A stretch of 64,000 nt of DNA from a virus: positions 18,287 through 82,286 of the IMG/VR virus record IMGVR_UViG_3300024999_000073; one strand, given 5' to 3'. Positions within the stretch are counted from its first letter, which is position 1, and every line of letters begins with the position of its first letter. Below the pieces are notes generated by a model. That model saw only the letters and a program-made list of their open reading frames with translations. It did no database searches and was not told the origin of the DNA. The position numbers were made by a program, and so were the translations under genes. Positions 11,665 to 62,872 of this stretch are shown here, piece by piece.

Positions 11665-11949
11665 ATGGCGGAGAAATATAAGTATCATTGTACTCCAGTA
11701 CCAGGAACGTTGTGCAAAGAAGAAGCACAATGGCTGGTTTGGTTCGAGAAATGTGGTAATTTATACACATACATGTGTACTCATCATGCAACGGAAGCGA
11801 TGAAAAACGGTGTGGATGGCTACGCTGTGATTTGTGTTCGCTCTTTTGAAGATGCTGTGTGCCTGTGTATGCCTGACATTGAGAAGGCCATAGAAATATT
11901 CCTGAATTCAGTTGAGAGCGCCGTAGGATTTCAAAAGCATGGACGATAA
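11665..11949 (+). CDS. Hypothetical Cys-rich protein
   Basis: GAGG RBS; overlaps the methyltransferase start. Confidence 0.45.
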   Translation: MAEKYKYHCTPVPGTLCKEEAQWLVWFEKCGNLYTYMCTHHATEAMKNGVDGYAVICVRSFEDAVCLCMPDIEKAIEIFLNSVESAVGFQKHGR

Positions 11950-15390: not shown

Positions 15391-15401
15391 TATGGCAGGC
15401 A

Positions 15402-16137
15402 CCGCGGGAAAACGAAGCGCGTTTGAAAAAACGGGTTTTAAGGGGTAAAATTGAGGCCTCGACAGAGAGGCAGAATTGCGGATTTAGAACCGGAGGCGAA
15501 GAATGAAAATCTCACAGCAAAAGATAAACGTGTTCTCGCAGGGGGATAACGGCCTGGAAGAACTGACATCTATTTCAATGCCGTTGGAGAAAGCATCGTC
15601 AACGTTCTTAGAGCGAGTCCTGATAGAACATTTGCATAAAGGGGATCATGATTTTATAAGCGAAACATTCTCATCGAAAAGTCTTTCACTTAGCGAAGCT
15701 GAAATAATACGCCATATCCTCAGAAATATTCCCCCAGTATCTTCTTATCAAACCCTGAACGAGCTTATGGGCGGTGATATTACCAATGAGGATGAACTCA
15801 GGATAGCAGCGATTGGGAAGATCAGCCAGGAATATCCTGGGGTAATTATCCGCGTAATTGACGTAAGCGAATTGGCTGGCGAGATGCGGGTGCGCTTTTT
15901 CAAGGATGGTTTTTACCAGGAGGAAAAAATCTTCCTGGACTTTAACACTAGATTTGACCCCAAAAAGATCGAAAAACCAACGAAAATCAATAAATTTGAT
16001 GGCCTTAAAGATGCCATTACTTCAAATAAGTAATGAAAGCGCGAATTGAAGATCAGGTTATAAACGATGTGATTTGAGGCTCAGAAAAATGATGTGAGCT
16101 AGAAAATTTCCAAAAATGTCATGTGGTTTCAATGTGA
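15402..16137. repeat. Fixed-length module copy 1 (left motif 15402-15445; right motif ~16112-16137)
   Basis: CCGCGGGAAAA-N20-GGGTTTTAAGGGG ... AAAAATGTCATGTGGTTTCAATGTGA; spacing 718. Confidence 0.7.
15503..16033 (+). CDS. Hypothetical protein
   Basis: 176 aa, GGAGG RBS. Confidence 0.6.
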   Translation: MKISQQKINVFSQGDNGLEELTSISMPLEKASSTFLERVLIEHLHKGDHDFISETFSSKSLSLSEAEIIRHILRNIPPVSSYQTLNELMGGDITNEDELRIAAIGKISQEYPGVIIRVIDVSELAGEMRVRFFKDGFYQEEKIFLDFNTRFDPKKIEKPTKINKFDGLKDAITSNK

Positions 16138-16159
16138 TTTAGAAAGCGGAGGCAAAGCG

Positions 16160-16933
16160 ATGGAAGTCCAGGTAGGAAGTCCTAATATAGGCATAGCGTG
16201 GCCGAAACAAGACTACGCCGTCTACCGGCTTAGCGACGCCGATATTGTCGCCGACGAAGACCAGGCGGTCTTGATAGCGTTGCGAGACTCGATGACCGCG
16301 TGTGCGTTTGGGATAGGGGACATCGTCACCAAAACCGTGATTGCCAACGCTAGCAAGGGCTACCAGGTGACGTCAGACCGCATATTTAGAGCGATAGCCA
16401 GGTTTTGTGGGCGGTCGGCCAGGACAGTTCGCTACTATTTCGAGACCGCCAGTTTCTTTGGGCCGGAGACGCGGGAGGAATTCGGGATACTTAGTTTCTC
16501 TCATTTCGTCTTTGCCAGGTCTTGCGGCGACAAATGGCGCGAAGTATTGGAGTACGCGGCCATAAATCCAGGCGCGACCGTAGGCGAGCTTATAGTCTTG
16601 TTCCAAGACGAAGCCCCAGTAGATACAGAGGCAAATAACGAAATGCGTGAACGTTCGCAGATTTACACAGGGGAGGCGGAGGATCTGGGAGAAGCCGACG
16701 CCGAAGAAATGTGTGAACGTTCGCAGGATTACATAAGGCAGCATGAGGCATACGGGATGATCGTCGAGCTTGGGGAAGTGAAGGAGAGTTTGACGGCATT
16801 AGCCAGGATAGTAGGTGGAGTCGCAGACCGGGAATTGCAACACCGGGCAGAGCGAGCGATAAAAGAACTGGACAGAGTATTGGGGGAATTGGTCAGAATA
16901 GCTGAGCGGAAGATGACCGTAGAAACAGGATAG
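16160..16933 (+). CDS. Hypothetical HTH-containing protein
   Basis: IFRAIARFCGRSARTVRYY helix-turn-helix-like segment; GGAGG RBS before 16160. Confidence 0.5.
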   Translation: MEVQVGSPNIGIAWPKQDYAVYRLSDADIVADEDQAVLIALRDSMTACAFGIGDIVTKTVIANASKGYQVTSDRIFRAIARFCGRSARTVRYYFETASFFGPETREEFGILSFSHFVFARSCGDKWREVLEYAAINPGATVGELIVLFQDEAPVDTEANNEMRERSQIYTGEAEDLGEADAEEMCERSQDYIRQHEAYGMIVELGEVKESLTALARIVGGVADRELQHRAERAIKELDRVLGELVRIAERKMTVETG

Positions 16934-16978
16934 AACGTGGTATAATTTTCGAGCCTCTTATGATCCCCTCACGGGGAA

Positions 16979-17013
16979 ATAGTCGGACGTTCCGCACGTC
17001 CGACTATCGTTTT
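16979..17013 (+). terminator. Intrinsic terminator-like hairpin
   Basis: ATAGTCGGACGT/ACGTCCGACTAT followed by CGTTTT. Confidence 0.6.
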
Positions 17014-17153
17014 AGGGGTATTTGAAGCCACTGGGAGAGATTGAGGCAACGATACAAAGGATACCGTGGTACATACATGTTAAATGAAGGAACCAAGCAT
17101 CAAAACCCGCCTGGCTTAGCACATTTGTTCTAAGAATGGCCTTCATAGAGACT

Positions 17154-17184
17154 AAAAAAGCCCGCGTGGTTAGCGCGGGCTTTT
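17154..17184. terminator. Bidirectional intrinsic terminator
   Basis: AAAAAAGCCCGCG-TGGTTAG-CGCGGGCTTTT at the convergence of + and - blocks. Confidence 0.8.
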
Positions 17185-17201
17185 GGTCTTATTCAATTAT
17201 T

Positions 17202-17636
17202 CTACCCCCAGCTTGCGTCTTCCCAATCTGGAAGAGCGTGTACTATCTTTGCACTCAAGTCGTTACAGAACTTGCCAAGTTCTTTGAACAACTTCGTCTT
17301 TGGAACGATGCCTTCTGCACACTGATACTGCAGGCATTCCGCAGACTTGAGGACTTTGATCAAAGAGTCGCATGGTGTGATGAGATATACGTAGTCTAGA
17401 GGGCGGAATTTCGGAGCTTCGCCGACTCCATAGCGCTGCTCGATGGCGGCGACGTTCATTGCAAACAGAGCCTTACCAAGCGCCTCGGCTTCTTTCTGGG
17501 TTTCGACGCCGAAATGACCAGGGGAATGGCTATAGTAGGGCGTCATGTGCTGGCCCTTGCTAGACAGCAAGAATGCCAGGATACGATTGATAGTTACATC
17601 TTCGACTATAGAAGCACTCATTTTCGTTTTCTCCAT
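17202..17636 (-). CDS. Hypothetical phage protein
   Basis: LFAMNVAAIEQRY...CLQYQCAE...W motif seen in phage early genes. Confidence 0.55.
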   Translation of the reverse strand: MEKTKMSASIVEDVTINRILAFLLSSKGQHMTPYYSHSPGHFGVETQKEAEALGKALFAMNVAAIEQRYGVGEAPKFRPLDYVYLITPCDSLIKVLKSAECLQYQCAEGIVPKTKLFKELGKFCNDLSAKIVHALPDWEDASWG

Positions 17637-17735
17637 TTCTCGATAACGGTTGCAACAGTCATCATGCCAATGATGATGAGCAGGGCCACGCCCTGCATTG
17701 TATTATTGAACATAGCTACGTTAACGTTATTCATG

Positions 17736-18017
17736 TCAATATTCTCCAGGTAAAAGCAGAGTTGTTGCACTATGGTCGGCCTCGGTGATGATCCACAACT
17801 TGCCATTGTGGGTGTCATAGGCGCTGAGAATGCGCAGAAAGCCGCACTCATAGGCGAGGTCATTCTCCATCTTGTCCATCGGAGTCATATCCCCCCAATC
17901 ACAGGAGGCGTGACGCTGGAGATAGTCCCCCAGCTCAACTCCCAGCGCGAAAGCGCCGGGAGTCGCAACGATCTGGCCTAGCTCGAAATTAGTGACGATA
18001 GTAGGTATAGTGTTCAT
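17736..18017 (-). CDS. Small conserved plasmid/phage early-region protein
   Basis: LGQIVATPGA...RHASCDWGD...ILSAY...LWIITEAD...TTLLLPGEY. Confidence 0.65.
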   Translation of the reverse strand: MNTIPTIVTNFELGQIVATPGAFALGVELGDYLQRHASCDWGDMTPMDKMENDLAYECGFLRILSAYDTHNGKLWIITEADHSATTLLLPGEY

Positions 18018-18021
18018 GGCA

Positions 18022-18618
18022 TTACTCCATCAACCGGGCCACAGCCACTTCTGCGTAGTCTTTCTTGAGATGCCAGGCCAGGTTTTCCTGTGCATCATCC
18101 ATGAGACCGCTTTTCTGGTTATCGCTCCCGTAGTAACCCCAGCAGGAGTCCACAGACTCGCCGTTCTTATCCAGCAAGTCGTAACCGAACACATATCCGT
18201 TGACGTAATTCCCATAGACCGCGACATCAGCCTCCAGGCAGCCGATGGCACGTCTGCGTGTTTTTGCGCTGATGATCTTGCAACTGTACTCCTTCAAGAC
18301 TTCTTCGCGTTCCACGAAAATCACACCGACTTGCCCGCTGTCCCACGGATCCCTAAAGCCTGTTGTATTCAGAGCAATGCCAGAATGCTCGTACATATAC
18401 ACAGGCAGCCATATAGCGCCAGTGTCTTTGATATGCTCCATCACTTTATCTGCATTGCGAAAGTGGTGCTTATCCCCCAAGTCATAGCGGCTATGGAAAC
18501 AGACCAGAGTACCCAGGTTATCCCACTCCTCGCGTGGGTTGACCGGATTATCGTCCGTGTACACCTTGAGAATGTAACCGGACCCCATTTCAATCGTTTC
18601 GACCAAATTCTCGTCCAT
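18022..18618 (-). CDS. Conserved mobile-element hypothetical protein
   Basis: NPREEWDNLG, LPVYMYEHSG, WDSGQVG, SCWGYYG motifs; AAGGAGTCT RBS. Confidence 0.65.
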   Translation of the reverse strand: MDENLVETIEMGSGYILKVYTDDNPVNPREEWDNLGTLVCFHSRYDLGDKHHFRNADKVMEHIKDTGAIWLPVYMYEHSGIALNTTGFRDPWDSGQVGVIFVEREEVLKEYSCKIISAKTRRRAIGCLEADVAVYGNYVNGYVFGYDLLDKNGESVDSCWGYYGSDNQKSGLMDDAQENLAWHLKKDYAEVAVARLME

Positions 18619-18654
18619 TTCAGACTCCTTATTATCTTGCGAATATTCACGGAT

Positions 18655-18858
18655 TTAGTGCTGGCAGGGCACTATGGGAAGCAGTCGACCAGGAAAATAC
18701 TTGGAGACTGCATCTTGGACTTCAGATGTACGCTGGCTTGCTTTGACGCTCATCCACTTTAGGCCCTGCTCAGACCAGTCTTGAAGTTCGTAAAGAGGCA
18801 TTTCTCCATGCTCTTTGTGTACGACGATGCGTGCTTTCCGTTCTGGTTTTGGGTTCAT
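18655..18858 (-). CDS. Hypothetical protein
   Basis: AAGGAGTCT RBS. Confidence 0.5.
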   Translation of the reverse strand: MNPKPERKARIVVHKEHGEMPLYELQDWSEQGLKWMSVKASQRTSEVQDAVSKYFPGRLLPIVPCQH

Positions 18859-19127
18859 AGAGACTCCTTTCTTTCAAACTCGTATTCAATGACCAAAATC
18901 GTATCTTTGCGTGGGTACATCATGGTGCTGCCGCCAAAGCTACACTCGTATGAGACGTAGAAATAACGGAATCGTGGAGTCGTATCATTACTTTCGTAAA
19001 TGATACTTCCGACGACATCCACGTTTCTGTCTGAGAATAGTTTCAGAAGCTCGTCATTTGTAGCCACATGGTCAAACTCATAAAGAGTCCAACCTGATGG
19101 GTTTCCCAACAACACTCTGCTAAACAT
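18855..19127 (-). CDS. Hypothetical protein
   Basis: AAGGAGTCT RBS before ATG 19127. Confidence 0.5.
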   Translation of the reverse strand: MFSRVLLGNPSGWTLYEFDHVATNDELLKLFSDRNVDVVGSIIYESNDTTPRFRYFYVSYECSFGGSTMMYPRKDTILVIEYEFERKESL

Positions 19128-19138
19128 AAGACTCCTTT

Positions 19139-20662
19139 CTACTTCCAACCTGAGAATGCGTGTTCGGCTATCATTCGAGAGAGTTGAGCGGTCAGCTCAG
19201 CCGGGTTAGTGATACCGGAGTCGAAGGCGATAAAGGCATCAGCGAGAGACTGCATACGCTCATTGTTATAGCGCCCCAATTGCACGTACATAAGGCGCGC
19301 GCCTGACTCCTTCTTGGTTTTCTCGAAGGCATCCATAACCTGAGGCGACGGGTTACAGATACCATCACTAATCATCATAATGTCGATAGCCTTATCTCCA
19401 TGTGACCATTCTTTGATCCTGGCAATGGCATGAGTGAGGACAGCGTCAAAGTTAGTGCCGCCGCCCCTGGAGTAACTCGCCCACTTGCAATGGGCTTTCC
19501 AGTCATCCTTGTCCGTAACGTGGTGATCGTCATCGACATCGGACTCAAAGGTATAGAGTTCATAACTCCTATCCTTCAAGTCTTCCATCGTAGCCTTAGC
19601 GACGCCCATGGCCACGCCCTTAGCCGCAACCGCATTACTGCCCTGGCCCCATCCCATGCTACCGGAGTCGTCGACGTAAGCAGCGAAGTTACCGCCTATC
19701 ACGCTTGACTCCAGGGGTTGCCAGCCTGGTAGACCGTCGCTCGCGAACCTCTGGATTCTCTTGGCGCGTACAGCCACGTGAACAGATGGGTGCATGAGCG
19801 CGATTTCGTGAGGAAAGATATGAGACACATCCTTTGTATTCTCCACCTTGGCGGCGGGTCCGAACTTACTGCGCTTGCAGTCCCGTATCGTCTGTTTTGC
19901 AATCCCCTTAGCGCGCCCTAACTGTAGAGCCAGCATAGAGAAATCGCTATCATTTGCCATCTCCAGAATTTCGGAGATGTCGTCAAGCTCTGTGGTAAGG
20001 CCGGGGTCGATCCCCCAGCCGCGCATAAACGCATTGACCTTATTTGCAGCTTGCCCTGCTTCATAAACAGCAGAGGCAACTACCTGGCCTTTGACCGGAT
20101 CCTGCCTAATCTTCTCAATACCTTCGACAGCTTCCCTGGCGACTTCAGTGGCCATTTGACGGATTTGTTCGGCGTTCTCGAACTTCTGAGTAGCGGCATT
20201 ACTCACCATTTCCTGACCGAGTTGATCCTCAGGCGCACTCTGTAGAGTCTCAGCGGCCTCCTGTTCCTCTTTCTTAGCGCGCTTTTCCAAGTCATCAGCC
20301 TGTCGCTGGCGATTTAGCGCATTCTGGATAGAGTCGTCGGTTCTCAGCGACTCCCAGAGCAGAGACGAAGCGGCTAAACTGGCCGGGATATTCCCTGCTG
20401 TGGACTGGACTGACTCCTTGAAGTCCTTATCGCAAAGAGTCCAATCCATAATAGCCTGGTTGACCTTGCGTTCAGGAGGCGCGTCGTCGATAACCTGAGC
20501 GCCGGACTTATAGAGGCCCAGGAAAGAGTCGCTGAGAAGATCATGTTCGCCGTCGTTGGACGGTGCAGAGTCTACCGTAGTCTGGAGAACACGGGTGATA
20601 GCTTTCTCACCCGTGCTCACCCTGACCGTATTGATCTTAGCTTTGAGAGGTATTTTTTGCAT
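19139..20662 (-). CDS. von Willebrand factor A (vWA) domain protein
   Basis: MIDAS VDDSGSM, GGGTNF, MISDG; N-terminal coiled coil. Confidence 0.85.
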   Translation of the reverse strand: MQKIPLKAKINTVRVSTGEKAITRVLQTTVDSAPSNDGEHDLLSDSFLGLYKSGAQVIDDAPPERKVNQAIMDWTLCDKDFKESVQSTAGNIPASLAASSLLWESLRTDDSIQNALNRQRQADDLEKRAKKEEQEAAETLQSAPEDQLGQEMVSNAATQKFENAEQIRQMATEVAREAVEGIEKIRQDPVKGQVVASAVYEAGQAANKVNAFMRGWGIDPGLTTELDDISEILEMANDSDFSMLALQLGRAKGIAKQTIRDCKRSKFGPAAKVENTKDVSHIFPHEIALMHPSVHVAVRAKRIQRFASDGLPGWQPLESSVIGGNFAAYVDDSGSMGWGQGSNAVAAKGVAMGVAKATMEDLKDRSYELYTFESDVDDDHHVTDKDDWKAHCKWASYSRGGGTNFDAVLTHAIARIKEWSHGDKAIDIMMISDGICNPSPQVMDAFEKTKKESGARLMYVQLGRYNNERMQSLADAFIAFDSGITNPAELTAQLSRMIAEHAFSGWK

Positions 20663-20671
20663 GGCAACCTC

Positions 20672-21844
20672 CTAGAACGGCGGCGGCTCGTCATCGTGTT
20701 GAGGCTGAGGGCCGCGCACGAACTCAGACAGAGACCGCAAAAGCGCGTTATGAGCTTCGAGATAACGCTCATCTTTATCATCGCCGCCGACCAAAGCCAG
20801 GATATTAGGAACTTCTTGGTTCAAGACCTTACCAAGCTCAATCGAAGCCAGGCGGCGGTCAGTTATAGAGGCGGCCAGTTGTTTCATCTTAGCGTAAGCA
20901 TACTTCATTGCAGTCTCGATAGCAGCGGTAACGGGGTCGAGCAGAGAAGCGCCGACCAACTCCGCCCAATCGCGAGCTTCTTCCGGAGTCTTTGTGGCCC
21001 AGGCGTATTTAATCATATCCATGGCTTCAGGACTGACCCGATTGAAGTCCTCGGCGTCCTGATAGAACGCAGACAGTCTATAGAGCATCCAGTTCCAGAT
21101 CGTCATACGGCGAGGGTTAGGATGTCCAAAAGCGCGGACAATCTTACCGTCAGAACCCTTGAGTCCCTCGCAGGCGGTGTTAGCTATGTCTCTACCAGCC
21201 TCCGAGACGCATTTTACGGCATTAGGTCCCGGATTGAAGTGGCGCACCCTATAAATCACGGCGGCGTCTGGAACTCCATCGACGACCATTTCAGAGTTCA
21301 TGGCAGCGAGGGCGTTTACGCCTACTGCGATAGGATCGAGTTTGACGTCAGGAACGTGGTAGTAGAGACCGATACGATCCAGCAGCGCCTCAGTTCTTGC
21401 GCTATCGGGTAAAGAGTTGGCTGTGCATATAGTCGAGGGAACATCTTGAAGTGGTATATCGAGTCTATCCATAACATCCATGAGAATGTCATAGACAGCA
21501 TCAGAAGGGCGACCGAATTCATCTGCGATATAAGCGCCAATGCTCTTTTGATATGGAGTACCGGCGACGATCATATTCCACTCACTCTTAGTCGTGAAAG
21601 CTGGCACATCCAGATAGCCCGTCATTTTTTCTGTGGGCGTAGTTGGGTTGAACCTGGTCATGACATAATTGTCGCCGAAGGCAGCTTTAGTGACTGCTCT
21701 TGCCATGCGAGTTTTACCCAGGCCAGGTCCACCAACCATGACGACATGCACGCCAGCCAAGAAACCGGCGATGCAGACCTGTTTCATTTCCTCGGCATAT
21801 GCGCCGACGAAATGACCGAAACCGTTATTACTTGGTGTGTTCAT
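20672..21844 (-). CDS. MoxR/RavA-like AAA+ ATPase
   Basis: GGPGLGKT, IADEFGR, TAN, ALLDR, NPRR. Confidence 0.85.
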   Translation of the reverse strand: MNTPSNNGFGHFVGAYAEEMKQVCIAGFLAGVHVVMVGGPGLGKTRMARAVTKAAFGDNYVMTRFNPTTPTEKMTGYLDVPAFTTKSEWNMIVAGTPYQKSIGAYIADEFGRPSDAVYDILMDVMDRLDIPLQDVPSTICTANSLPDSARTEALLDRIGLYYHVPDVKLDPIAVGVNALAAMNSEMVVDGVPDAAVIYRVRHFNPGPNAVKCVSEAGRDIANTACEGLKGSDGKIVRAFGHPNPRRMTIWNWMLYRLSAFYQDAEDFNRVSPEAMDMIKYAWATKTPEEARDWAELVGASLLDPVTAAIETAMKYAYAKMKQLAASITDRRLASIELGKVLNQEVPNILALVGGDDKDERYLEAHNALLRSLSEFVRGPQPQHDDEPPPF

Positions 21845-21856
21845 TGATAGACTCCT

Positions 21857-22381
21857 TTAGTTGAGCTTGTCTTTATCTTCTTCGCGCCGAACGACGTCAT
21901 TGGCGTGTTTGAGAGTATTGGCGAGGTTGAGAATCTTGTCCTTGTTCTCGACGAAAAACTGCATTCCACCAACCATTTCCTCGACAAGGAGGCGTCGGGC
22001 TTCGTCTTCGTCTTTGATGCCTTCTTCCCGCATAAAGCGGGCGACATCTTCGTCTGCTCTACGTTGTTCGGCCTCTACGATTCTTTTTCCCTCTTTGCCG
22101 AAAACATTCGCGAACATCTGGTCGCGTTTCTTGATGGGGATGCCATTGAGATTATCATCGTACCAGACAATGGAAAACGCAGATTCTATCAAATCAGCCT
22201 GCACAGCCGCAGCCGCGGGTCTGTGCGCGTACTCAGGCGAGGCGTCGAACCATGCTTTCAGTTCGACGAGCATTTTGCGGTGGGCATTTTCAATGCCGAC
22301 CTCGGCGATAGCCTCGCGATAATTATCTTTGGAGGCGACTGCCGATGGATAGCCATTGACGATCTTCACGATCTTGTTCAT
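21857..22381 (-). CDS. Hypothetical protein
   Basis: AAGGAGTCT RBS before ATG 22381. Confidence 0.6.
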   Translation of the reverse strand: MNKIVKIVNGYPSAVASKDNYREAIAEVGIENAHRKMLVELKAWFDASPEYAHRPAAAAVQADLIESAFSIVWYDDNLNGIPIKKRDQMFANVFGKEGKRIVEAEQRRADEDVARFMREEGIKDEDEARRLLVEEMVGGMQFFVENKDKILNLANTLKHANDVVRREEDKDKLN

Positions 22382-22397
22382 TGATAGACTCCTTTCT

Positions 22398-22604
22398 TTA
22401 TCCAATATCAGCCAATTGTTGCAGGCGTTCTTCTATCCAACGTCTGCGCAGTGGCAGAACATTATCTCGCGTCAAAGCCGCGAGTTCATTAGTCAGGAAG
22501 AACTTTTCCGAGACCAGGGACATGTGCAGTAATTCCATGTATGCGGACTGGTATTTTTCTGCAAAGTCCGACCATTGTTGTGGGGTGACATAGTGAACTT
22601 GCAT
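22398..22604 (-). CDS. Hypothetical protein
   Basis: AAGGAGTCT RBS. Confidence 0.55.
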   Translation of the reverse strand: MQVHYVTPQQWSDFAEKYQSAYMELLHMSLVSEKFFLTNELAALTRDNVLPLRRRWIEERLQQLADIG

Positions 22605-22605
22605 A

Positions 22606-23547
22606 TCAGACTCCTTTACTTCTGCAATATTGCAGCCACATAGCCGCCACCTTTGGCGTCTCTATCGAGGCTGCATCTAAGAGGTCAACGCGATCGCGTT
22701 TCTCCATAAAGCTGATTTCAGTCGGCTCCACGTTATTAGCGTAGAGATCGACGCATACGCGCATTCTTGCCTCCCTCAGGGCGTCGGCTGATAGATACGT
22801 TCTACTTGCAAAGACCGCATCGAGAATAGCGCAGGCAGTCTTACGGCGCATATTCTTGAGGACAGCGAGGAAGTCGGGGCTATTCTCGATAGTCCTGACA
22901 GTTTCGGCTTCTTTCATATCGGCGAGCAAAGCCGTAGCAGGTGGTGAGTTCTCGCCGTCGACAGGCACCTCGAACAGACCTGAGGCAAAGCGATTGCGTT
23001 TCCAGGCTTCGACGACGTCGCCATCTGGCAGAGCCAGGGGCGAAAGTTCACCGGGTCTAGAGCGGATTTTAGGGCAGCCGCAGGACGGGCAAGAGACAAC
23101 GTGATAAGCCTCTTCCACTTGAGAGCTAATTGCCTCCTCCAAACAAGTGCAGACCCAGGTTTCCTTAGGGCCAGCGGGTCTACCGCGTCGCCCCAATTTA
23201 TCCTCAATAGCATCGTGGATATGTTGATCTTCAGCAGACAGCTTGAACTCTTTAGGTTCGGCGTGATACAATTCTACAGTCTGCGCGCCTTCGCCAAGAG
23301 CTATCTGATAGACCTCATGAGCGAGTTGTTCGGACTTGCACAAAAACACACCTTCCTGAAAGACGACGCGGTCGGTTGAGACCGTATTACGTCCGGCGAG
23401 ATTGACACGGCGTTGGAGAGGACTGTCCTCGAAGCTGGTTGAATCCTTACGCCGTTTACCGACGTGAAAGCCAGCGATGCGCTTCACGCGGTTATAGAAA
23501 GTCGTGGGCGGCTTCCTGCCGTCCCATTCTATTAGGACTTGCCACAT
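22606..23547 (-). CDS. Hypothetical protein, possible Cas2/VapD-like N-terminus plus Zn finger
   Basis: MWQVLIEWDG...FQEGVF resembles Cas2 (YD...QxSVF); CTC...CPSCG. Confidence 0.4.
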   Translation of the reverse strand: MWQVLIEWDGRKPPTTFYNRVKRIAGFHVGKRRKDSTSFEDSPLQRRVNLAGRNTVSTDRVVFQEGVFLCKSEQLAHEVYQIALGEGAQTVELYHAEPKEFKLSAEDQHIHDAIEDKLGRRGRPAGPKETWVCTCLEEAISSQVEEAYHVVSCPSCGCPKIRSRPGELSPLALPDGDVVEAWKRNRFASGLFEVPVDGENSPPATALLADMKEAETVRTIENSPDFLAVLKNMRRKTACAILDAVFASRTYLSADALREARMRVCVDLYANNVEPTEISFMEKRDRVDLLDAASIETPKVAAMWLQYCRSKGV

Positions 23548-23549
23548 AG

Positions 23550-23909
23550 TTAGACTCCTTCATCGTTTTTGATACGTTCCAATTCATATTGAGCCGTAGT
23601 CTTGAGCGGGATGCCGCGCGCCTGCAAGCCCAGTTGCCAGGCGTCGACAAAGTCTTGTAGGCTTTTTCCAGACTGTTTAGGCATAGCGGGGGCGAACTTA
23701 TGAGCGTCGGTACGTTTAGGTCGGATAGCCACGTAGGTAGCGTCATCGATCAAAACCGTAACCAAAGTATAGAGATAGTCATCGATAACCAGCACGCCGG
23801 GGCTGAAATCATGGGCGTCGACGAATTCGCGCACACGTTCAACGGCGTCGATAGAGGCTATCAAAAAAAGATTGCCATGTTTCTTGAGACCATCCAAGAT
23901 TTCGCTCAT
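23550..23909 (-). CDS. Hypothetical protein
   Basis: Operon packing. Confidence 0.55.
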   Translation of the reverse strand: MSEILDGLKKHGNLFLIASIDAVERVREFVDAHDFSPGVLVIDDYLYTLVTVLIDDATYVAIRPKRTDAHKFAPAMPKQSGKSLQDFVDAWQLGLQARGIPLKTTAQYELERIKNDEGV

Positions 23910-24139
23910 GGCATCTCCGGCATAGAAATCCAGGGGTGTTGATCGTCGTATGTATACGACACAACTTCGAGAGAGATTTTACGACAATTCGGTAGCCACA
24001 AACCCGCTATTCTGTCGAACTGATTGCAGATAGCGATACTTCTATTCGTAAAATCAACAGTTGTTATTGTGATTTCCACAATTTTGACGACACTGCCATC
24101 TTTCAGGAAGCAAACGGGGTGTTGACTGTAGTCGATCAT
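23906..24139 (-). CDS. Hypothetical protein
   Basis: AAGGAGTCT RBS. Confidence 0.5.
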   Translation of the reverse strand: MIDYSQHPVCFLKDGSVVKIVEITITTVDFTNRSIAICNQFDRIAGLWLPNCRKISLEVVSYTYDDQHPWISMPEMP

Positions 24140-24367
24140 AGCAGACTCCTTTCGTTGAACGTTGATTGAATTGACACCTTGAGTCTATGGCAGATATACG
24201 ATCTGTCGTAGACGCCAGGGGGCGAGTCGCGTGTAAAGCGGCTCGCCCATTGCAGTTTACGTCGATTCGCGATTGATCGATTCGTCGTCCTGCGGTTCAT
24301 CCACGTTTCTTCAAAGCTGACAGCAAGAACAAAATGAACAGCAGGAGTTCCACAGTCTACCTCCTTT

Positions 24368-24619
24368 CTATCTTTTCATTAACTCTTCTACATCCTTCGC
24401 CAGGGCGACGTAAGTGCGGCCAAGGCGTTTATGGCCTACTTTTGTAAAGAAGGCTTTATGGAAGGTCAGGATGAGGGTAAAATTTGCGTCTGGATTAGCT
24501 TGGATAGCATCTCGCAGAGCTTGTTCGGCCTTATCGCCATTGCTGTCGAAATCAGCGCTTTCGACCGGGCGGGGCAAAGTAGCGGCCAAAGCTACAAATG
24601 TCACTTCGGTATCATTCAT
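24368..24619 (-). CDS. Hypothetical protein
   Basis: GGAGG RBS, coupled to upstream gene. Confidence 0.55.
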   Translation of the reverse strand: MNDTEVTFVALAATLPRPVESADFDSNGDKAEQALRDAIQANPDANFTLILTFHKAFFTKVGHKRLGRTYVALAKDVEELMKR

Positions 24620-25215
24620 TTAGAACCTCCGTAGAATAGTTTCATAATTTCACCGAATCTATGTTCGTCTTCTTCGGTGATGGGAGTACAAGGTACTTCA
24701 GGTGTGGCGTCCGTGTTGTTCTGTTGTTCTGTCGCTGATCGAGCGAAAGTATTGGCGATCCCACGCAAAGCGCGCTGTTCTAGAGCTTGCATGACGACGC
24801 TGATAGACTCGACGGCAGATGCGGATTGATTATCCGGGCACAACAGAGCCGTTAGAAGTGCAGCCACTGCCCTGACAGCATCTCCTGCACGTGTTTCGTC
24901 TTTGGCGACGCCGATAGTGACGATAGCCATCGTGCCATGCTCATTGGATGGCACCGTAGCCGCGAAAGAAAGCTCGACTTGTTCCGAGGTAAAGGTTTCA
25001 AGGCGAGTGACATTCTTGTTGTGGATATGGGCGGCGCACAGGAGCTTAATCAGAATGGCTTCCTTGCGTCCATCGGAGTTGCCGGTAAGCACAGCGAAAA
25101 GAGCGTCGATAGTTTCAGCAAAGACACGTGTTTGCTCCTTTTCTTTACTGTTACTACAGTCGCTCACGATTTTGAGGACGCTATCTGAGGTGTCGTACGA
25201 GAGATTGATCTTCAT
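24616..25215 (-). CDS. Hypothetical protein
   Basis: AAGGAGTCT RBS before ATG 25215. Confidence 0.6.
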   Translation of the reverse strand: MKINLSYDTSDSVLKIVSDCSNSKEKEQTRVFAETIDALFAVLTGNSDGRKEAILIKLLCAAHIHNKNVTRLETFTSEQVELSFAATVPSNEHGTMAIVTIGVAKDETRAGDAVRAVAALLTALLCPDNQSASAVESISVVMQALEQRALRGIANTFARSATEQQNNTDATPEVPCTPITEEDEHRFGEIMKLFYGGSK

Positions 25216-25240
25216 AGCAGACTCCTTTCTATGGTAGGTA

Positions 25241-25966
25241 CCGCGGGAAAATGCGGGCGTTATTAAAAAAGGGGTTTTAAGGGGGCATTTTGTCAATTTT
25301 TGACTCATGCTCCCTCACATATTATTAGGCGTCGACTACTTTTACGCCAGGGAAGGCTTCGGCGTACGAGACCTCGTGTTCGGACAGACAGGTCTCGAAC
25401 AAGTCAATAGCCTCATCCTGAGAGACAGGGATGAGCGTGTCCTGTTCGCCCTGCCAGCAGGTGAGATTGACTATGAAGTAATTGCCGTTTGGGGTGCGGT
25501 ACAGGAATTCATTGCGCCCGTGACGCTCGAAGTTATGACCGTCCCAGTATGCGTCATGGGCGATCAAAGTCGCCGTTTGGACGCTATAGCGTTTGCGGTC
25601 GATTATTCTTACAAAAGACTTAGGTGCGTGCATTACAACATCCTTTCGTTAGTTTGGTCTATGCCTGAATTGGACTGTGCCACTGGATTGAGTATATATC
25701 GCTACCGCCAGTTCGATAGCAGCGACAAGAAGTCGAAAGCATATTTTTGTATTAATCCATAAGCGCCTCCATATTCCAGTATCCGCATGGTGTTATTGTA
25801 TCACATTTACGAGAGGTTGTCAATTTATTGCCAGGTCTGGTTTTGCGGCATAAGCCAGGGGCAGAGGCAAACCACGGATCACGCAGATTACACAGATTTT
25901 TCTATTGATGTAGGTTCAATGTGATGTGGTCTCGAAAGCATGTGCGCCAAAAAATTTCATGTGGTT
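25241..25966. repeat. Fixed-length module copy 2
   Basis: Left motif 25241-25284; AAAAATTTCATGTGGTT at 25950-25966; spacing 717. Confidence 0.7.
25325..25633 (-). CDS. Conserved phage hypothetical protein
   Basis: IIDRKRYS...LYRTPNGNYF motif; AAAGGA RBS. Confidence 0.6.
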   Translation of the reverse strand: MHAPKSFVRIIDRKRYSVQTATLIAHDAYWDGHNFERHGRNEFLYRTPNGNYFIVNLTCWQGEQDTLIPVSQDEAIDLFETCLSEHEVSYAEAFPGVKVVDA

Positions 25967-26186
25967 GATGCTTCTATTAAAGCGAAAAGCCGCCAGGGGT
26001 AAAACTGGCGGCTTTACGTTCCATACGCGAGGCATTTCCCCTGATTTTTGAGACAAAAAAACCGCCGAACCCGTGACCGTGTGGTCTTGGGATCGGCGGC
26101 TTTTCGCAAAAGCACGCAAAAGCGTCTTACAGCCCCAGTTGGGGCCAAGAGTCGGGCAGGTCCCGACTAGATTACCAGTTAGTCTC

Positions 26187-26546
26187 CTACAGTCCGGCTC
26201 CGCGAAGCCTGTCAACAATCTCGGCTAACTGCCAGAGGTAATTGTCGGCTTTGAGTGTGGCGCTCATACGTTTGATGGTCTGGAAAGGGACCTGCTTTTT
26301 GAGGAATTTATCAAGCAGGTATGTGACCATAGCTCGAATAGCCACAGAGTCTGTGGCTAGAGTAGCTTTGCGGTTGACCAGCCATTCCTCGCCCCTGGCG
26401 AGGATTACGGTATAGTTCTCGTCCGCCTTCTCATCGAAGGCAACGAAAACGTCGCCGCTTGGGACTTCGCCAACCTGGAAGAAGTCATTCTCGTCAAGGT
26501 GCAGCATGGCGAGGATGTTGGAGAAGTAGACCGGAGTGGCGTTCAT
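26187..26546 (-). CDS. Hypothetical protein
   Basis: GAGGAG RBS before MNATPVYF. Confidence 0.55.
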   Translation of the reverse strand: MNATPVYFSNILAMLHLDENDFFQVGEVPSGDVFVAFDEKADENYTVILARGEEWLVNRKATLATDSVAIRAMVTYLLDKFLKKQVPFQTIKRMSATLKADNYLWQLAEIVDRLRGAGL

Positions 26547-26800
26547 CGTCTCCTCTCCACTGCCAGGGTTCCACCGCCCCTGGCGGCTCGATTCCAAGTT
26601 TCAGCGCGCATCATAGTCAGCGCCCATTGTCGCTCGGACGCAGGTCTGATGACCAAGTTCCAGTGCCCCTCGCAAGAGGGAAGCACAGAACCGTCACCAT
26701 CTACACACCATTCCACAGATCCTTCGATCCGCGAAATGGCGACGCCGAGGTACCCCGCCCATCGGCGTTTTCCGAAACCGGTTAGGTTCTCAGTTATCAT
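26543..26800 (-). CDS. Hypothetical protein
   Basis: AAGGAGTCT RBS. Confidence 0.5.
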   Translation of the reverse strand: MITENLTGFGKRRWAGYLGVAISRIEGSVEWCVDGDGSVLPSCEGHWNLVIRPASERQWALTMMRAETWNRAARGGGTLAVERRR

Positions 26801-26964
26801 TAGACTCCTTTTGCCCGTATAGGGCGAATGGGTGCGGCTGGAGTCGGCCAGCCCCGATGAGTAGATTGTCTACCCATGTGCGCCCTGGAGTTTACTGCGG
26901 TCACTCCAGCTACTCCACGTTTGATGACGCAGTGGGATAGCGCATGTCGGTATACAATCGAGAT

Positions 26965-27700
26965 CCGCGGGAAAATGAATCACGACACGAAAAAGGGGTT
27001 TTAAGGGGCCTTTTGAAGGATGAGGGATGAAGGATGAAGGACGACAGGGGAGTCTTAGCGTAGTGCCATTCTTAGAACGATTGTGCTAAGAACGGAGGGA
27101 TGGAAAGGACAAACATATTATATGAAGGACAATACGCTTGGAGGCGTACAGAATCGGGTATCCTGGGGTAACTGGGGGATTCTGGCGGATACCTGGCGTG
27201 ATACCGGTATTCTGGCGGATAATGCCAAATGAGGGAAAAAAGCGCGTCTGTAGAAACTGAGACGACAAAAAGCCTATGATTGGGCTGTTTTATTTGTGCT
27301 ATAACTCCCGACCCCTCGCAACGAAGCGCCGGTGTTGCAGGTTCACCATACGTCTATAGAGGATACGACTCGGCTGATATAGCGCAGTGGGCAAGTGCGT
27401 GGGCTTGTCTTGCACGCTACGCGTGCAGTTTCAAGCCATTAGCCTTGTGCATAAGCAAATATCAGTCATGGTTGTTGAGACAAAGCGGCAATCTGTGGCC
27501 GGTGTGCGCCACGCTGCTATGCGTGTATGATGGTATGTCTCAACAGAGTCGCAGGCAAAGCTAAGACTGTTTTCCTGGGTTCAAGTTCACCAAGCAGGAG
27601 TTGGTCGAGGTTGGGAGCGCCGATGTTAAAGATCGTCTCACGGATGTGAGATCGAGCGATTTCGTCATCTCGGAAAAATTTCATGTGGTTTCAAGTGTGA
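26965..27700. repeat. Fixed-length module copy 3
   Basis: Left motif 26965-27008; AAAAATTTCATGTGGTTTCAAGTGTGA at 27674-27700; spacing 717. Confidence 0.7.
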
Positions 27701-27862
27701 GTCGCCACACGTGAGGGCCGGTGAGACCAGGTGGTCTCATAAGCCCTCACGCGAGGCGTCTTGCTTTTCTTAGAACGCCCGTTCTAGTCTGCCCTGGCGG
27801 GCTGTAGGCTATCCTTGGCGGGCTATTGAGTCAGTGGTAAGGTACAAAAATGAGCTTTAAAC

Positions 27863-27925: not shown

Positions 27926-28588
27926 TTAGCTGGTTGCGGGTGCCAGGCTTGCGCGGATATCCTCAGGCAACGCCAGGACAAACGCCGCGCGCATGGCCTC
28001 AGGCAATGCAGCGATGGCGGTCTGCATGGCGGAGAGCGTTTCTTCTGCCTTGCTCAGTTTTTCGCTGAGCATGGCTTTCGTCTCGCCCTGCGGAGCATGC
28101 TCCGCAGGATACCAGTCGCGTACCACATGGCTAATCGCCTGGCTAAAAGCCAGGCCAACATTGTGTACCTTGCCTACTTTGGTGACTTGCAGCCCTCCAA
28201 TGCCCCAGGGTACGGCGGGCACGTCATTGCCGTTTGCCTTGCTGAGAATCTGCAAAGTTGACTCCTCGATGCCGGGTTCGGTTTTTTTCCAACCCTCATC
28301 GGGGGTGATAAGGGTGAGGCTTGCGTTATGCGCGCCTGAGTCAATGTTGATCTTGCTGATTGACTCAAACCCGTGTGCTGCTTGGCGGAGGCATTCACGC
28401 TTGTATGCCTCCACGCGTGGAAGGGAAAAGTTGATTGTGGGTGAAACAGTCACTTTCGCCCATGTGCACTTGCCGGTGAGGGTAATCAGGATTGACTCCG
28501 CTACGATCGCGGAGGGTTGTACCTCGGTGGAGGGTCGCGCCTCAATGGGCGCGGGTACGGTTGTCGGGGTAGTGCTTTTTGTGGACAT
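27926..28588 (-). CDS. Hypothetical protein (first large gene of the leftward early block)
   Basis: AAGGAGTCT RBS before ATG 28588. Confidence 0.6.
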   Translation of the reverse strand: MSTKSTTPTTVPAPIEARPSTEVQPSAIVAESILITLTGKCTWAKVTVSPTINFSLPRVEAYKRECLRQAAHGFESISKINIDSGAHNASLTLITPDEGWKKTEPGIEESTLQILSKANGNDVPAVPWGIGGLQVTKVGKVHNVGLAFSQAISHVVRDWYPAEHAPQGETKAMLSEKLSKAEETLSAMQTAIAALPEAMRAAFVLALPEDIRASLAPATS

Positions 28589-28649
28589 TGTTAGACTCCT
28601 TTGGGTTATTGGGTATGGGTTGCGATAGGGTGAGAGGCTTGACTCAGTG

Positions 28650-28715
28650 CTACTTTGCGAGTAGCACGGACAGGCCAAACAAGATAAAAAATCCGATCAA
28701 AATTAGGTAAATCAT
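28650..28715 (-). CDS. 21-aa hydrophobic peptide
   Basis: MIYLILIGFFILFGLSVLLAK with AAAAGGAGTC RBS. Confidence 0.4.
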   Translation of the reverse strand: MIYLILIGFFILFGLSVLLAK

Positions 28716-29542
28716 TTTCGACTCCTTTTGAAATGGGAATGGGTAAGCGCACGCGTAGAGTCTCAATCCACGCGTACATGCTTGCCAATAGGGTGAAAAA
28801 ATACAACATGGTACAATTTTACCCTGTTTGAATTTGTGCCCTTTAAGCGTGAATGATACCCCAACCTGTAGCCAAAATCTGCTTTAATTTGCTATTACCC
28901 CCCATCTATGGGGTACTGTGCCTTGCCCTATGTTAATGTATTCATGTATTTTATAGATCACTATATGAGTTTTACTCATATAGTGCTACCAGGTGATACT
29001 TGGTGATACTGTTTTTCTCCAATACTCTAATCTTTCGTTCTATGGATTATACGTAGTTTGGCATATCACACCCGTTTTCTTTAACAATCACGCTTTTCTC
29101 GATCTTGTGGCTGTTTGACTCTCGTGTGTGCCTGTGTGCCTGGTACGTCGGCCCTGTGTGCTCCCCTCTTCTGTGTATGCTTGTGACCCTGTGACTCACC
29201 GAAACCCGTGAACGTTCGCACATATCGAACGAGTCATGCCACTATGGTGGCATTGACGCCGCACGCACAGCGCCCGCGCCCGTGCAGACAAGGGAGTCGG
29301 AGGCTAGGCCGCCCATGCGCATAGCACGAGTTAAAAACCAGGTCGAGAAAGCAAGCAAAGACCCTATAGAACGCCCTTGCGCATAGCGTGAGTCAATTTG
29401 GGGGTCAAAAAGCCAGAAGCGGGTATCACAGATCGCCCTTGTGCGTAGCGTGGATCGATTCTAGCATCAGAAAGGGGAAAGCACAACCTACAGTCGCCCA
29501 GAGAAGCAATCGCGGTAGAAAAGTGAGAGCAAGTCGGGTATA

Positions 29543-44114: not shown

Positions 44115-44357
44115 CTATCCGTCTCTAGATTCTCGTACATAAGCTGGTTGTCGTGTAACTTCCATAGCGAGTTTCACACGCGGGCACGTCATCCGGTCTT
44201 GCTTGAAGCCTAACTTCTTGTAGATCGCACTCATGTGGTTCTTGACTGTGCCAGGCTGGATATTCAATATCTCAGCGATTGCATTGTTGGAATATCCATA
44301 AGCTACCAGGCCCGCAATCTGGTGCTCGCGCTTAGATAAATCGGTGAAGTCGCTCAT
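44115..44357 (-). CDS. LuxR/GerE-type HTH protein
   Basis: LSKREHQIAGLVAYGYSNNAIAEILNIQPGTVKNHMSAIYKKLG. Confidence 0.85.
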   Translation of the reverse strand: MSDFTDLSKREHQIAGLVAYGYSNNAIAEILNIQPGTVKNHMSAIYKKLGFKQDRMTCPRVKLAMEVTRQPAYVRESRDG

Positions 44358-44476
44358 TATAGCTTGGCGACGATATACTTCAGGGTGTCGATCAACTCGC
44401 GGAGATCGTTGACCTGGCTCCGCTGTTGAGTTCGACTGCAACAGAAAGTATTGGTTTCAGTTTTAGTTCTGCCATC

Positions 44477-62666: not shown

Positions 62667-62872
62667 TGAACAGACCTGATTATATTTGTTGTGTTTTACA
62701 TACCAGCGCAGAGCGAAAAGACCAAACTTGGTGCGGTCGAGATTTGAGTGGGACATTCGAATTTGCCTTTACGAATATAGATCATGCTGCCTATGCCAGT
62801 ATCAGTGGGGATCGTCTAAGAATATGTCCTAAGTGCCTACGAGTCATAAAGGAAGCATTTAATGGCAGTTAG
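62666..62872 (+). CDS. Small Zn-binding protein
   Basis: H...TWCG...CPKC. Confidence 0.45.
   Translation: MNRPDYICCVLHTSAERKDQTWCGRDLSGTFEFAFTNIDHAAYASISGDRLRICPKCLRVIKEAFNGS

Follow-up and report, generated by a model that had tools for sequence, protein, structure and literature searches.

Cis-acting elements of bacteria and phages are normally defined by their sequence, and distances of hundreds of base pairs between sites usually drift freely. Distinct left and right boxes that lie at a set distance and are joined by an oligomeric DNA-binding protein are found in SPP1-type pac sites, where TerS binds pacL-pacC-pacR, and in looping operators such as lambda OL-OR and phage 186 FL/FR; these are single-copy loci with a conserved intervening sequence or with spacing that varies among relatives. 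In T4-type phages, promoter-early stem-loop (PeSL) regulatory cassettes repeat one element many times at variable distances (Arbiol et al. 2010, PMC2839356). Silencing by KorB-KorA on RK2 couples two different sites over hundreds of base pairs through a ParB-family protein, and does so over variable rather than fixed distances (PMC11790492). Finally, the localized single-strand interruptions of T5, phiKMV-like phages and tf occur in few copies on one strand with a sharp, partly bipartite consensus, and their function is unknown even in these model phages (PMC3517423).

The window analysed here is a 64,000-nt stretch (bases 18287-82286) of the 82,286-bp genome of an uncultivated groundwater phage. 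It holds three units, each opening with a left motif L (CCGCGGGAAAA-N20-GGGTTTTAAGGGG) and closing with a right motif R (AAAAATKTCATGTGGTT). Exact matching reproduced the L positions listed by the sequence-only reading (15402, 25241 and 26965) and placed R at 16112, 25950 and 27674. The CATG within R falls at 16120, 25958 and 27682, giving L-start-to-CATG distances of 718, 717 and 717 bp for units 1, 2 and 3, just as that reading had stated. Measured start to start the motifs are about 709-710 bp apart, with 665-666 bp (226 nm) of DNA between them and 727 bp (247 nm) when both motifs are included. Each motif occurs three times in the entire genome, always paired and on the + strand (3/3 copies of each, none on the - strand), confirming that the units are alike in orientation regardless of gene direction. 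No degenerate copies were found genome-wide for L at up to four mismatches or for R at up to three, and 100 shuffles of the sequence yielded no match to L with up to three mismatches allowed. If the first pair is taken to set the distance, a simple estimate puts the chance of two further same-strand pairs falling within 1 bp of it at about 7e-10.

L consists of two blocks held 20 bp apart by sequence that is free to vary, an architecture typical of sites recognised by proteins. Substitutions have saturated this gap but indels are absent from it, a sign that it is both old and under constraint. Units 2 and 3 share four anchors (L-a, L-b, R and anchor 4) on one exact diagonal with an offset of 1724; anchor 4 (ACGCGAGGC / CCnnACGCGAGGCnTnT) lies in the same register in both, extending the frame to 800 bp. 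A genome-wide scan for two seeds sharing a diagonal with nothing between them returned only the L/R triple and ordinary gene duplications.

Table 1. Coordinates of the three units and the neighbouring gene in the window
Feature	Position	Strand	Description
L copy 1	15402..15445	+	bipartite: CCGCGGGAAAAYG, 13-14 bp free spacer, AAAAASGGGTTTTAAGGGG; + gene ATG 58 nt downstream
Unit 1 interior	15503..16033	+	176-aa ORFan gene, GGAGG ribosome-binding site
R end copy 1	16066..16139	+	17-bp box 16112-16128, ending 32 nt before gene 16160
257-aa protein gene	16160..16933	+	ParB/Spo0J/Noc/KorB-type DNA-binding domain fold; starts 32 nt after right motif 1
L copy 2	25241..25284	+	between two - strand genes; 16 nt from start of next - gene
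Unit 2 interior	25325..25633	-	102-aa gene of a widespread family (336 representatives)
R end copy 2	25950..26037	+	box 25950-25966; GC hairpin 25989-26012 then TTT; anchor 4 26021-26037
L copy 3	26965..27008	+	within 1.1-kb non-coding gap flanked by - strand genes
Unit 3 interior, first half	27009..27296	+	GGA-rich (15 GGA vs 1 TCC); terminator at end
Unit 3 interior, second half	27305..27617	+	non-coding; folds moderately well, z -2.2 on +, -2.7 on -
R end copy 3	27674..27775	+	box 27674-27690; nested hairpin 27711-27750; anchor 4 27745-27761

The three interiors are unrelated, as had been claimed, by each of four tests: MAFFT alignment found no similarity, ungapped in-register identity was 24-28% against a background of 25%, and both blastn with word size 7 and six-frame tblastn gave only chance matches on both strands. 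Unit 1 holds a + gene, unit 2 a - gene and unit 3 non-coding DNA. The codon score of the unit 1 ORFan gene (0.147) lies inside the range of the phage's confident genes, and the unit 2 gene has its own sigma-70-type promoter (25823-25795, TTGACA-17-TACAAT, 11/12). That the interiors comprise an ORFan, a gene of a widespread family and non-coding DNA argues that they are not diverged copies of one another; we reject diverged segmental duplication because register identity equals background, blastn and tblastn matches are at chance level, and the interior genes lie on opposite strands with different histories. The core inference thus stands: the units keep their length but not their content, and this is not explained by common descent. 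This triplication around unrelated DNA is unlike SPP1-type pac sites and the looping operators. A single protein family encoded under an alternative genetic code is likewise rejected, since no single stop reassignment opens a frame in any unit and nearly every frame of the three units contains at least two kinds of stop codon.

Strain variants were seen as assembled contigs of public runs (X5 and X7). One X7 contig matches the reference as far as 25282, in the last bases of L2, and diverges from there; a second X7 contig returns to the reference at 26046, 9 bp beyond anchor 4. In the X5 assembly there is a break at 15445/15452, where L1 ends on its right side, and the region 26.1-27.9 kb is in fragments. 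A diverged strain retains R as AAAAAATCATGTGGTTTG inside about 130 bp at roughly 20% divergence, and its indels of +2, -1, -1 and -1 (net -1) compensate one another, keeping R at 716 bp. The proposal of a ruler mechanism is partly supported, in so far as length is kept without content and indels are compensated, but the ruler itself is neither proven nor refuted. Searches found L and R in no other phage or genome, and no analogous motif pairs near relatives of TerL or of the 257-aa protein.

The units keep their orientation whether they run sense, as unit 1 does in a + gene block, or antisense, as units 2 and 3 do in a - block (by codon scores), so they either work at the DNA level or give rise to + strand RNA of their own. 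L looks like a start of rightward transcription. Intrinsic + strand terminators follow R2 and R3 (the latter at 27751-27764 plus TTTTCTT) inside the - strand gene block, the genome's densest ANGGA cluster (z ~8; GGA:TCC 15:1) begins directly after L3 and stops at a + terminator, and in the X7 variant a GGAGGA sequence resembling a ribosome-binding site lies about 20 nt downstream of L2; together with the + gene downstream of L1, these features point to + transcription from L. The first half of unit 3 is a candidate Csr/Rsm-type sponge sRNA started at L3. Because of its intrinsic terminator (27271-27286 plus a T-run to 27296, 285 nt after L3), L and R are unlikely to be joined by an RNA, and coupling at the DNA level is what is left. 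L contains no conserved sigma-70 hexamers; only copy 1 scores 10/12, and it does so through its free spacer. Placement of the units in the 18.7-29.2 kb stretch, which is free of the genome-wide 14-bp palindrome regulon, fits a separate control circuit.

In several respects the units resemble PeSL cassettes: short conserved regulatory modules surround unrelated, often ORFan, accessory genes, strain differences appear to begin and end at the modules, and promoter and terminator functions, putative ones here, sit at the boundaries. Unlike PeSLs, they consist of two different motifs 717 ± 1 bp apart in three copies, their orientation is independent of the flanking genes, and L has no conserved sigma-70 promoter. 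The PeSL pattern of one element, a conserved sigma-70 promoter with its terminator stem-loop, repeated on either side is thus not seen, terminators following only R2 and R3.

The gene beside R1 encodes a 257-aa protein with the DNA-binding fold at residues 22-154 and a C-terminal helical hairpin. VIA Z scores were 8.2-9.6 to the Spo0J, ParB and Noc DNA-binding domains over 95-112 aligned residues and 7.0 to that of KorB, values that are middling for an all-helical domain; Foldseek gave a probability of 0.99 to 6s6h, and the ESM Atlas gave leads to ParB HTH. The R1 box sits in the genome's only cluster of four ATGTGR boxes, and we infer that this protein is a candidate binder of R. The likeness to KorB-KorA silencing (PMC11790492) thus extends from two different sites hundreds of base pairs apart, here putatively coupled by a ParB-family protein, to a KorB-type fold encoded next to one of them. 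Unlike KorB, the phage protein has no N-terminal CTPase clamp domain, and there is no palindromic OB/parS site and no ParA: the genome has no match to PF02195, PF13614 or PF01656 and no parS at up to three mismatches, and R is not palindromic, in contrast to classical ParB/KorB sites. A ParABS partition system is thus not supported, although an HTH-type domain is present.

Our preferred reading, at a probability of roughly 0.3, is that the units represent one DNA module in three copies, with paired docking sites for proteins and a spacing under selection. Such a module would be two-ended, strand-oriented and cis-acting, and would be read by proteins on duplex DNA. L would serve as a bipartite start site of rightward transcription, either a non-sigma-70 promoter or an activator site, from which unit 1 would produce an mRNA, unit 2 an antisense RNA and unit 3 a small RNA rich in GGA. 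R, a 17-bp box in a loose ATGTGR cluster, would most likely be the operator of the ParB-fold HTH/coiled-coil protein, and the two ends would work together, a protein bridge between them closing off a defined DNA domain. What is selected would then be distance and orientation, not content, leaving the interior free to be swapped between strains. The motifs and their exact pairing, the unrelated interiors, the fold of the neighbouring protein and the strain breakpoints at L are observations; transcription from L, binding of R by the 257-aa protein, bridging and selection on spacing are inferred. Among the options that the sequence-only reading had listed, a looping or paired-site unit appears to fit best. 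Several points count against the docking module. L lacks conserved sigma-70 hexamers, R is not palindromic, and the Z of the ParB-like fold match is middling. A loop of 0.7 kb can gain or lose whole helical turns, so that simple looping does not call for a spacing exact to ±1 bp. There are three copies in one genome, and the searches met the motifs in no other phage or genome.

The alternative that survives best, which we nonetheless consider fairly unlikely, is that L and R are independent regulatory elements, L being a special promoter and R, along with the hairpin and anchor 4, an operator/terminator, and that their equal spacing is a relic of one duplicated module of about 0.8 kb, kept by chance or weak constraint while the interiors were replaced. 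The adjacency of units 2 and 3 and their exact 1724-bp offset over four anchors are what a tandem duplication would leave, and the terminators after R2 and R3 and the evidence for transcription from L serve this explanation equally well. Against it, the interiors retain no similarity, in register or otherwise, and the gene in unit 2 is an import from a widespread family, lying with its promoter on the opposite strand. Replacement that restored the length to ±1 bp by chance would, on our estimate, occur about once in 100-300 cases, and the substitution-saturated spacer of L has stayed free of indels.

We also think it unlikely that the units are exchangeable cassette slots, with L and R (or anchor 4) as recombination boundaries for swaps among co-infecting relatives, possibly via small circles. 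The breakpoints of X7 (25282 and 26046) and X5 (15445/15452) are what such slots predict, as are interiors made up of an ORFan, a horizontally spread gene and non-coding DNA, and PeSL-mediated shuffling and mini-circles are documented (PMC2839356). The exchangeable-cassette option raised earlier thus gains partial support, from strain variants that diverge exactly at the L edge. Homologous exchange, however, needs the same sequence on both sides, whereas L and R differ, and nothing in it fixes length. No Phage_integrase, Resolvase, HNH or RVT_1 match was detected in the genome, and the variant contigs, which show joints and circles poorly, contained neither.

Quite improbable, in our view, is that L and/or R are strand-specific enzymatic sites, whether nick sites or sites where replication or packaging initiates or terminates, defining a single strand of about 0.72 kb. 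The motifs do share with nick sites a sharp, all-or-none consensus in few copies, all on one strand and with no weaker copies, and L is bipartite like the phiKMV nick consensus CGACxxxxxCCTA/CTCCGG (PMC3517423). The T5, phiKMV and tf sites are single motifs, however, not pairs at a fixed distance; Pfam scans recognised no nickase, HNH or RCR gene. Packaging fares no better. The suggestion that copies 2 and 3 lie near terS is right only loosely, since 1.85 kb with - strand genes separates R3 from the terS-like gene downstream of it (29543), and the three units lie 1.85, 3.6 and 13.4 kb upstream of that gene; this spread argues against a pac/cos site or a terminal-repeat boundary, and three pac/cos sites would cut the genome into pieces. 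The IMG/VR record has no end repeats. The terminal-repeat or packaging option and that of promoter-plus-iteron origins both went without support.

A very improbable but concrete possibility is that a rigid physical ruler measures the distance from L to R. The most concrete candidate is the neck-plus-tail channel of the phage itself: L and R would be engaged simultaneously at its two ends, and the units would serve as checkpoints, encoded in the sequence, of a DNA ejection that proceeds in steps. The 1444-aa tape measure protein predicts a tail of about 217 nm, as against 226 nm between the motifs and 247 nm between their outer edges. The three units share one orientation and, should packaging begin at terS, would lie in the arm that enters first. 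A more general version would be a content-independent, length-measuring DNA element.

Least probable is a fixed-length + strand RNA of about 0.77-0.8 kb whose length is functional and whose 5' (L) and 3' (R-hairpin-anchor 4) ends are conserved: units 2 and 3 do have such ends with + strand terminators, and pairing of R with anchor 4 is possible on the + strand alone, since it includes G-U pairs, but unit 3 has a good terminator 285 nt after L3, unit 1 has neither anchor 4 nor a terminator and runs into the next gene, the R/anchor-4 stem is weak (-2.8 kcal/mol) and without covariation, and there was no Rfam match.

Known structured RNA families were not supported either, the Rfam 15 covariance-model search giving no match at E <=1 apart from two chance-level ones outside the motifs. 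Transposon, MITE or IS ends were not supported, L and R having no direct or inverted similarity and the genome no match to the recombinase families searched (Phage_integrase, Resolvase, HNH and RVT_1), and integron-type cassettes found no support.

Two different sites thus seem to be held at a distance exact to one base pair while the DNA between them is replaced, and no known mechanism accounts for this. If the spacing is truly kept, some process in the phage measures about 0.7 kb of DNA, which would amount to a new design principle for gene regulation, DNA entry or genome organisation and would provide a natural 'slot' of defined size for accessory genes. Even on an ordinary reading, the units would form a small regulon separate from the phage's palindrome regulon, with a candidate ParB-fold regulator and a candidate phage-encoded Csr/Rsm-type sponge RNA.

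The left motif (L) reads CCGCGGGAAAA-N20-GGGTTTTAAGGGG and the right motif (R) AAAAATKTCATGTGGTT, and all six copies lie on the + strand. From the start of L to the CATG of R we measured 718, 717 and 717 bp, reproducing the distances of the sequence-only reading. Each motif occurs three times and no more in the whole 82,286-bp genome, where allowing 3–4 mismatches revealed no degenerate extra copies of either. Given the first pair, we estimate p ~7e-10 for two further same-strand pairs within 1 bp, and a genome-wide scan for pairs of separate seeds that share a diagonal, with no match in between, returned only the L/R triple and ordinary gene duplications. Our sample of these L-to-R units is three copies from one genome. 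We tentatively favor, with a probability of roughly 0.3, the view that the units are a paired module for protein docking, with a geometry that is under selection.

Positions in the window of the motif copies and of the main features within and beside the units
Feature	Position	Strand	Remarks
L1	start 15402	+	
R1	start 16112	+	
Gene of the 257-aa protein	16160-16933	+	starts 32 nt past R1
L2	start 25241	+	
102-aa gene, unit 2 interior	25325-25633	-	widespread family, 336 representatives at 50% clustering
R2	start 25950	+	
L3	start 26965	+	
GGA-rich stretch, ~285 nt	27009-27296	+	GGA:TCC 15:1, repeats such as GAAGGATGA
R3	start 27674	+	

L is bipartite: DNA that is free in sequence and devoid of indels separates a block of 13 bp (CCGCGGGAAAAYG) from one of 19 bp (AAAAASGGGTTTTAAGGGG); immediately 5′ of L, copies 1 and 2 also share TATGGYAGGYA. 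R is a 17-bp box inside a loose cluster of ATGTGR boxes, and within the whole genome a four-box cluster is found only at R1. Past R2 and R3 lies a fourth conserved block, CCnnACGCGAGGCnTnT (anchor 4), exactly aligned with the other three anchors on a single diagonal (offset 1724), so that the conserved frame of copies 2 and 3 extends to 800 bp. The interval from R to anchor 4 holds a hairpin in each of these copies, different in sequence but contained in the same 54 nt; copy 1 lacks anchor 4 because a gene begins there at 16160. We rejected inverted-repeat or MITE ends for the units, as well as L as a lone restriction target, since the genome shows no avoidance of CCGCGG (23 observed versus 19 expected). 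The sequence TTCTTAGAACG occurs twice, ~700 bp apart (27068-27095 and 27766-27790), and its second copy forms TAGAACG-CCC-GTTCTA, a GAAC-N4-GTTC (Cheo/LexA-like) palindrome just past the R3 terminator.

The interiors had been described as having no visible similarity, and MAFFT likewise finds nothing in common among them. In-register ungapped identity is 24–28% against a background of 25%, and 7-mer blastn and six-frame tblastn, each covering both strands, returned chance matches only, which together rule out an origin of the interiors as diverged duplicates of one segment. Unit 1 encloses a + strand gene for a 176-aa ORFan with a GGAGG ribosome-binding site; its database search matched only itself, and its codon score of 0.147 is typical of the phage’s genes (0.10–0.24). 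The unit 2 gene has its own promoter (TTGACA-17-TACAAT), and at least this unit contains imported DNA. Its product has no Pfam domain and belongs to a large, uncharacterised family whose members are usually ~100 aa; giant proteins, such as one of 3748 aa, contain up to 19 copies of the same domain. Codon scoring finds no coding frame in unit 3, in line with its description as mostly non-coding. No L-to-R frame opens with a reassigned stop codon, which led us to reject a long ORF common to the units under recoding, and a wrapping signal was likewise rejected, as no 10–11 bp A/T periodicity is common to the interiors (87th–95th percentile only). Because the interiors are unrelated, their equal length cannot be the leftover of slow divergence. 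We rank the model in which equal spacing is a historical relic below the docking module.

Logan contigs from public metagenome runs revealed strain variants of the units. In run X7, where the reference form is also present, one contig departs from the reference after 25282, at the last bases of L2, and continues into unrelated sequence bearing a ribosome-binding-site-like GGAGGA, and another rejoins the reference at 26046, 9 bp past anchor 4. In X5 there is an assembly break at L1's right edge (15445/15452). In runs X5 and X11 the right part of unit 3 has a variant form that is identical to the reference to 27600 and then ~20% diverged, yet retains the R box as AAAAAATCATGTGGTTTG; its indels (+2, -1, -1, -1) give a distance of 716. 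These contigs point to a mosaic joint at L, to selection acting on R and to a tolerance of ±1 bp, and hint at, without proving, indel compensation. A model of units as slots for exchangeable cassettes would fit the joint at L and the imported DNA of unit 2, and it also ranks below the docking module, as cassette boundaries explain parts of the anatomy but not a 1-bp spacing around replaced content. Promoter-plus-operator, nick-site, origin and pac models likewise account for parts of the anatomy but not for such a spacing. A model in which L and R are enzymatic sites is placed below the docking module too. No integrase, resolvase, HNH nuclease or reverse transcriptase was found in the genome.

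Judging from sequence, L appears to be where rightward transcription begins. A + strand gene starts 58 nt past L1, and directly past L3 lies the genome’s densest A-N-GGA cluster (10 per 250 nt versus 0.95 ± 1.08). This GGA-rich stretch is weakly folded, ends in a + strand intrinsic terminator (27271-27296) and has no Rfam match, and its composition makes it a candidate phage-encoded sponge sRNA for a Csr/Rsm-type protein. Further + strand intrinsic terminators follow R2 and R3, within a - strand block. L lacks conserved sigma-70 hexamers and thus, if it is a promoter, would be one of a special class. Sigma-70 region 2 was not found in the genome, and region-4-like matches were limited to the 44115-44441 LuxR-type protein and weak ones. 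A model in which L and R delimit an RNA of fixed length could draw on the terminators past R2 and R3, but with a terminator inside unit 3 one transcript running from L to R is unlikely and a coupling of L and R on the DNA more likely, and this model too stands below the docking module.

The protein encoded just past R1 has an AlphaFold model with a mean pLDDT of 71.6, with residues 22–154 at ~74–92 by 10-residue block. This segment matches the DNA-binding domains of ParB, Spo0J and Noc (Z 8.2–9.6 over 95–112 residues) and of KorB (Z 7.0), Foldseek gives a probability of 0.99 to 6s6h, and the ESM Atlas yields leads to ParB-HTH. A helical hairpin is modeled C-terminal to the DNA-binding domain, and the CTPase N-domain is absent. 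As the gene of a DNA-binding protein adjoins the box cluster, this arrangement suggests that the 257-aa protein may autoregulate at R1 and act at R2 and R3. R as a parS site was rejected; neither a ParB N-domain nor ParA was found in the genome. Environmental phage contigs encode eight homologues of the protein, including one of 41% identity on the 83-kb contig that also carries the closest TerL relative, and its gene contains two copies (16646, 16712) of a 14-bp palindrome.

At ≤1 mismatch the window contains 26 sites of this palindrome, TGCGAAYRTTCGCA (4460-60994), against 0.56 expected, and a small 108-aa LuxR/GerE-type HTH protein (44115-44441, -) is a candidate regulator of its regulon. 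None of the sites falls between 18651 and 29207, the - strand block around units 2 and 3, which places these units in a differently controlled stretch. At 27926-28678, codon usage identifies the - strand 250-aa frame as the real gene rather than the overlapping + strand 211-aa frame, and the - strand block therefore spans 19.1 to ~29.2 kb; near the C-terminus of the 250-aa protein lies a weak match resembling sigma-70 region 4 (E 0.014). Unit 1 thus lies sense within a + strand block and units 2 and 3 antisense within the - strand block. An 820-bp non-coding region upstream of the terS-like gene (28720-29540) holds a GGTGATAC direct repeat (28990-29010), a run of CTGTGTGC / TGTGAC boxes (29110-29200) and a palindrome site (29207), and is a candidate divergent control region, or pac or ori region.

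The phage is siphovirus-like, with a 1444-aa tape measure protein, and comes from groundwater metagenomes; CheckV puts the single IMG/VR record, of which the window covers bases 18287-82286, at 95% completeness. Both contig ends (1-957 of the whole-genome record; 62862-63998 of the window) lie in a gene of 60-bp tandem repeats and have the same sequence. The assembly probably broke in this repeat, which suggests a possibly circular or circularly permuted genome. Many palindromes of 6 bp are strongly avoided genome-wide (observed versus expected: AGTACT 0 vs 7.6, TGATCA 1 vs 35, CTCGAG 1 vs 16.5, CGGCCG 1 vs 15.7, GCATGC 1 vs 14), which points to heavy restriction pressure, and a large multi-module DNA methyltransferase gene lies at 11939-14560.

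With a best TerL match of 57% identity the phage has no close relative, and neither GenBank phages, in near and distant mode, nor IMG/VR contain anything resembling it at the DNA level. A motif search of IMG/VR for relatives gave no real match, and two junction sequences from strain variants gave no result there. A metagenome scan recovered nothing but this phage itself, at 99.7% identity (L015, L016), and a scan of GTDB genomes gave one chance match, in a Moraniibacteriota MAG, with neither CCGCGG nor R. Paired L/R-like architecture was absent from 80 TerL-relative loci, five whole IMG/VR records and one locus of a 257-aa protein homologue, a comparison that says little, as these share only TerL with the phage.

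Among the closest known systems are the PeSL regulatory cassettes of T4-type phages (PMC2839356), long-range regulation by the ParB-family protein KorB with KorA (PMC11790492), the localized nick sites of T5, phiKMV and tf phages (PMC3517423), and two-box pac or looping loci. The units lack defining features of each, and differ from all four in that two different motifs are coupled at a fixed distance, in three copies.

The boldest reading is that the L-R distance is set by a rigid ruler, perhaps the tail channel, for which the DNA between the motifs (226–247 nm) and the predicted tail (~217 nm plus neck) offer a numerical coincidence only. A simple loop of 0.7 kb would tolerate length changes of whole helical turns. 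If the units are a docking module, L and R would be coupled on the DNA through docked proteins, such that their spacing is kept and the content between them is replaceable.
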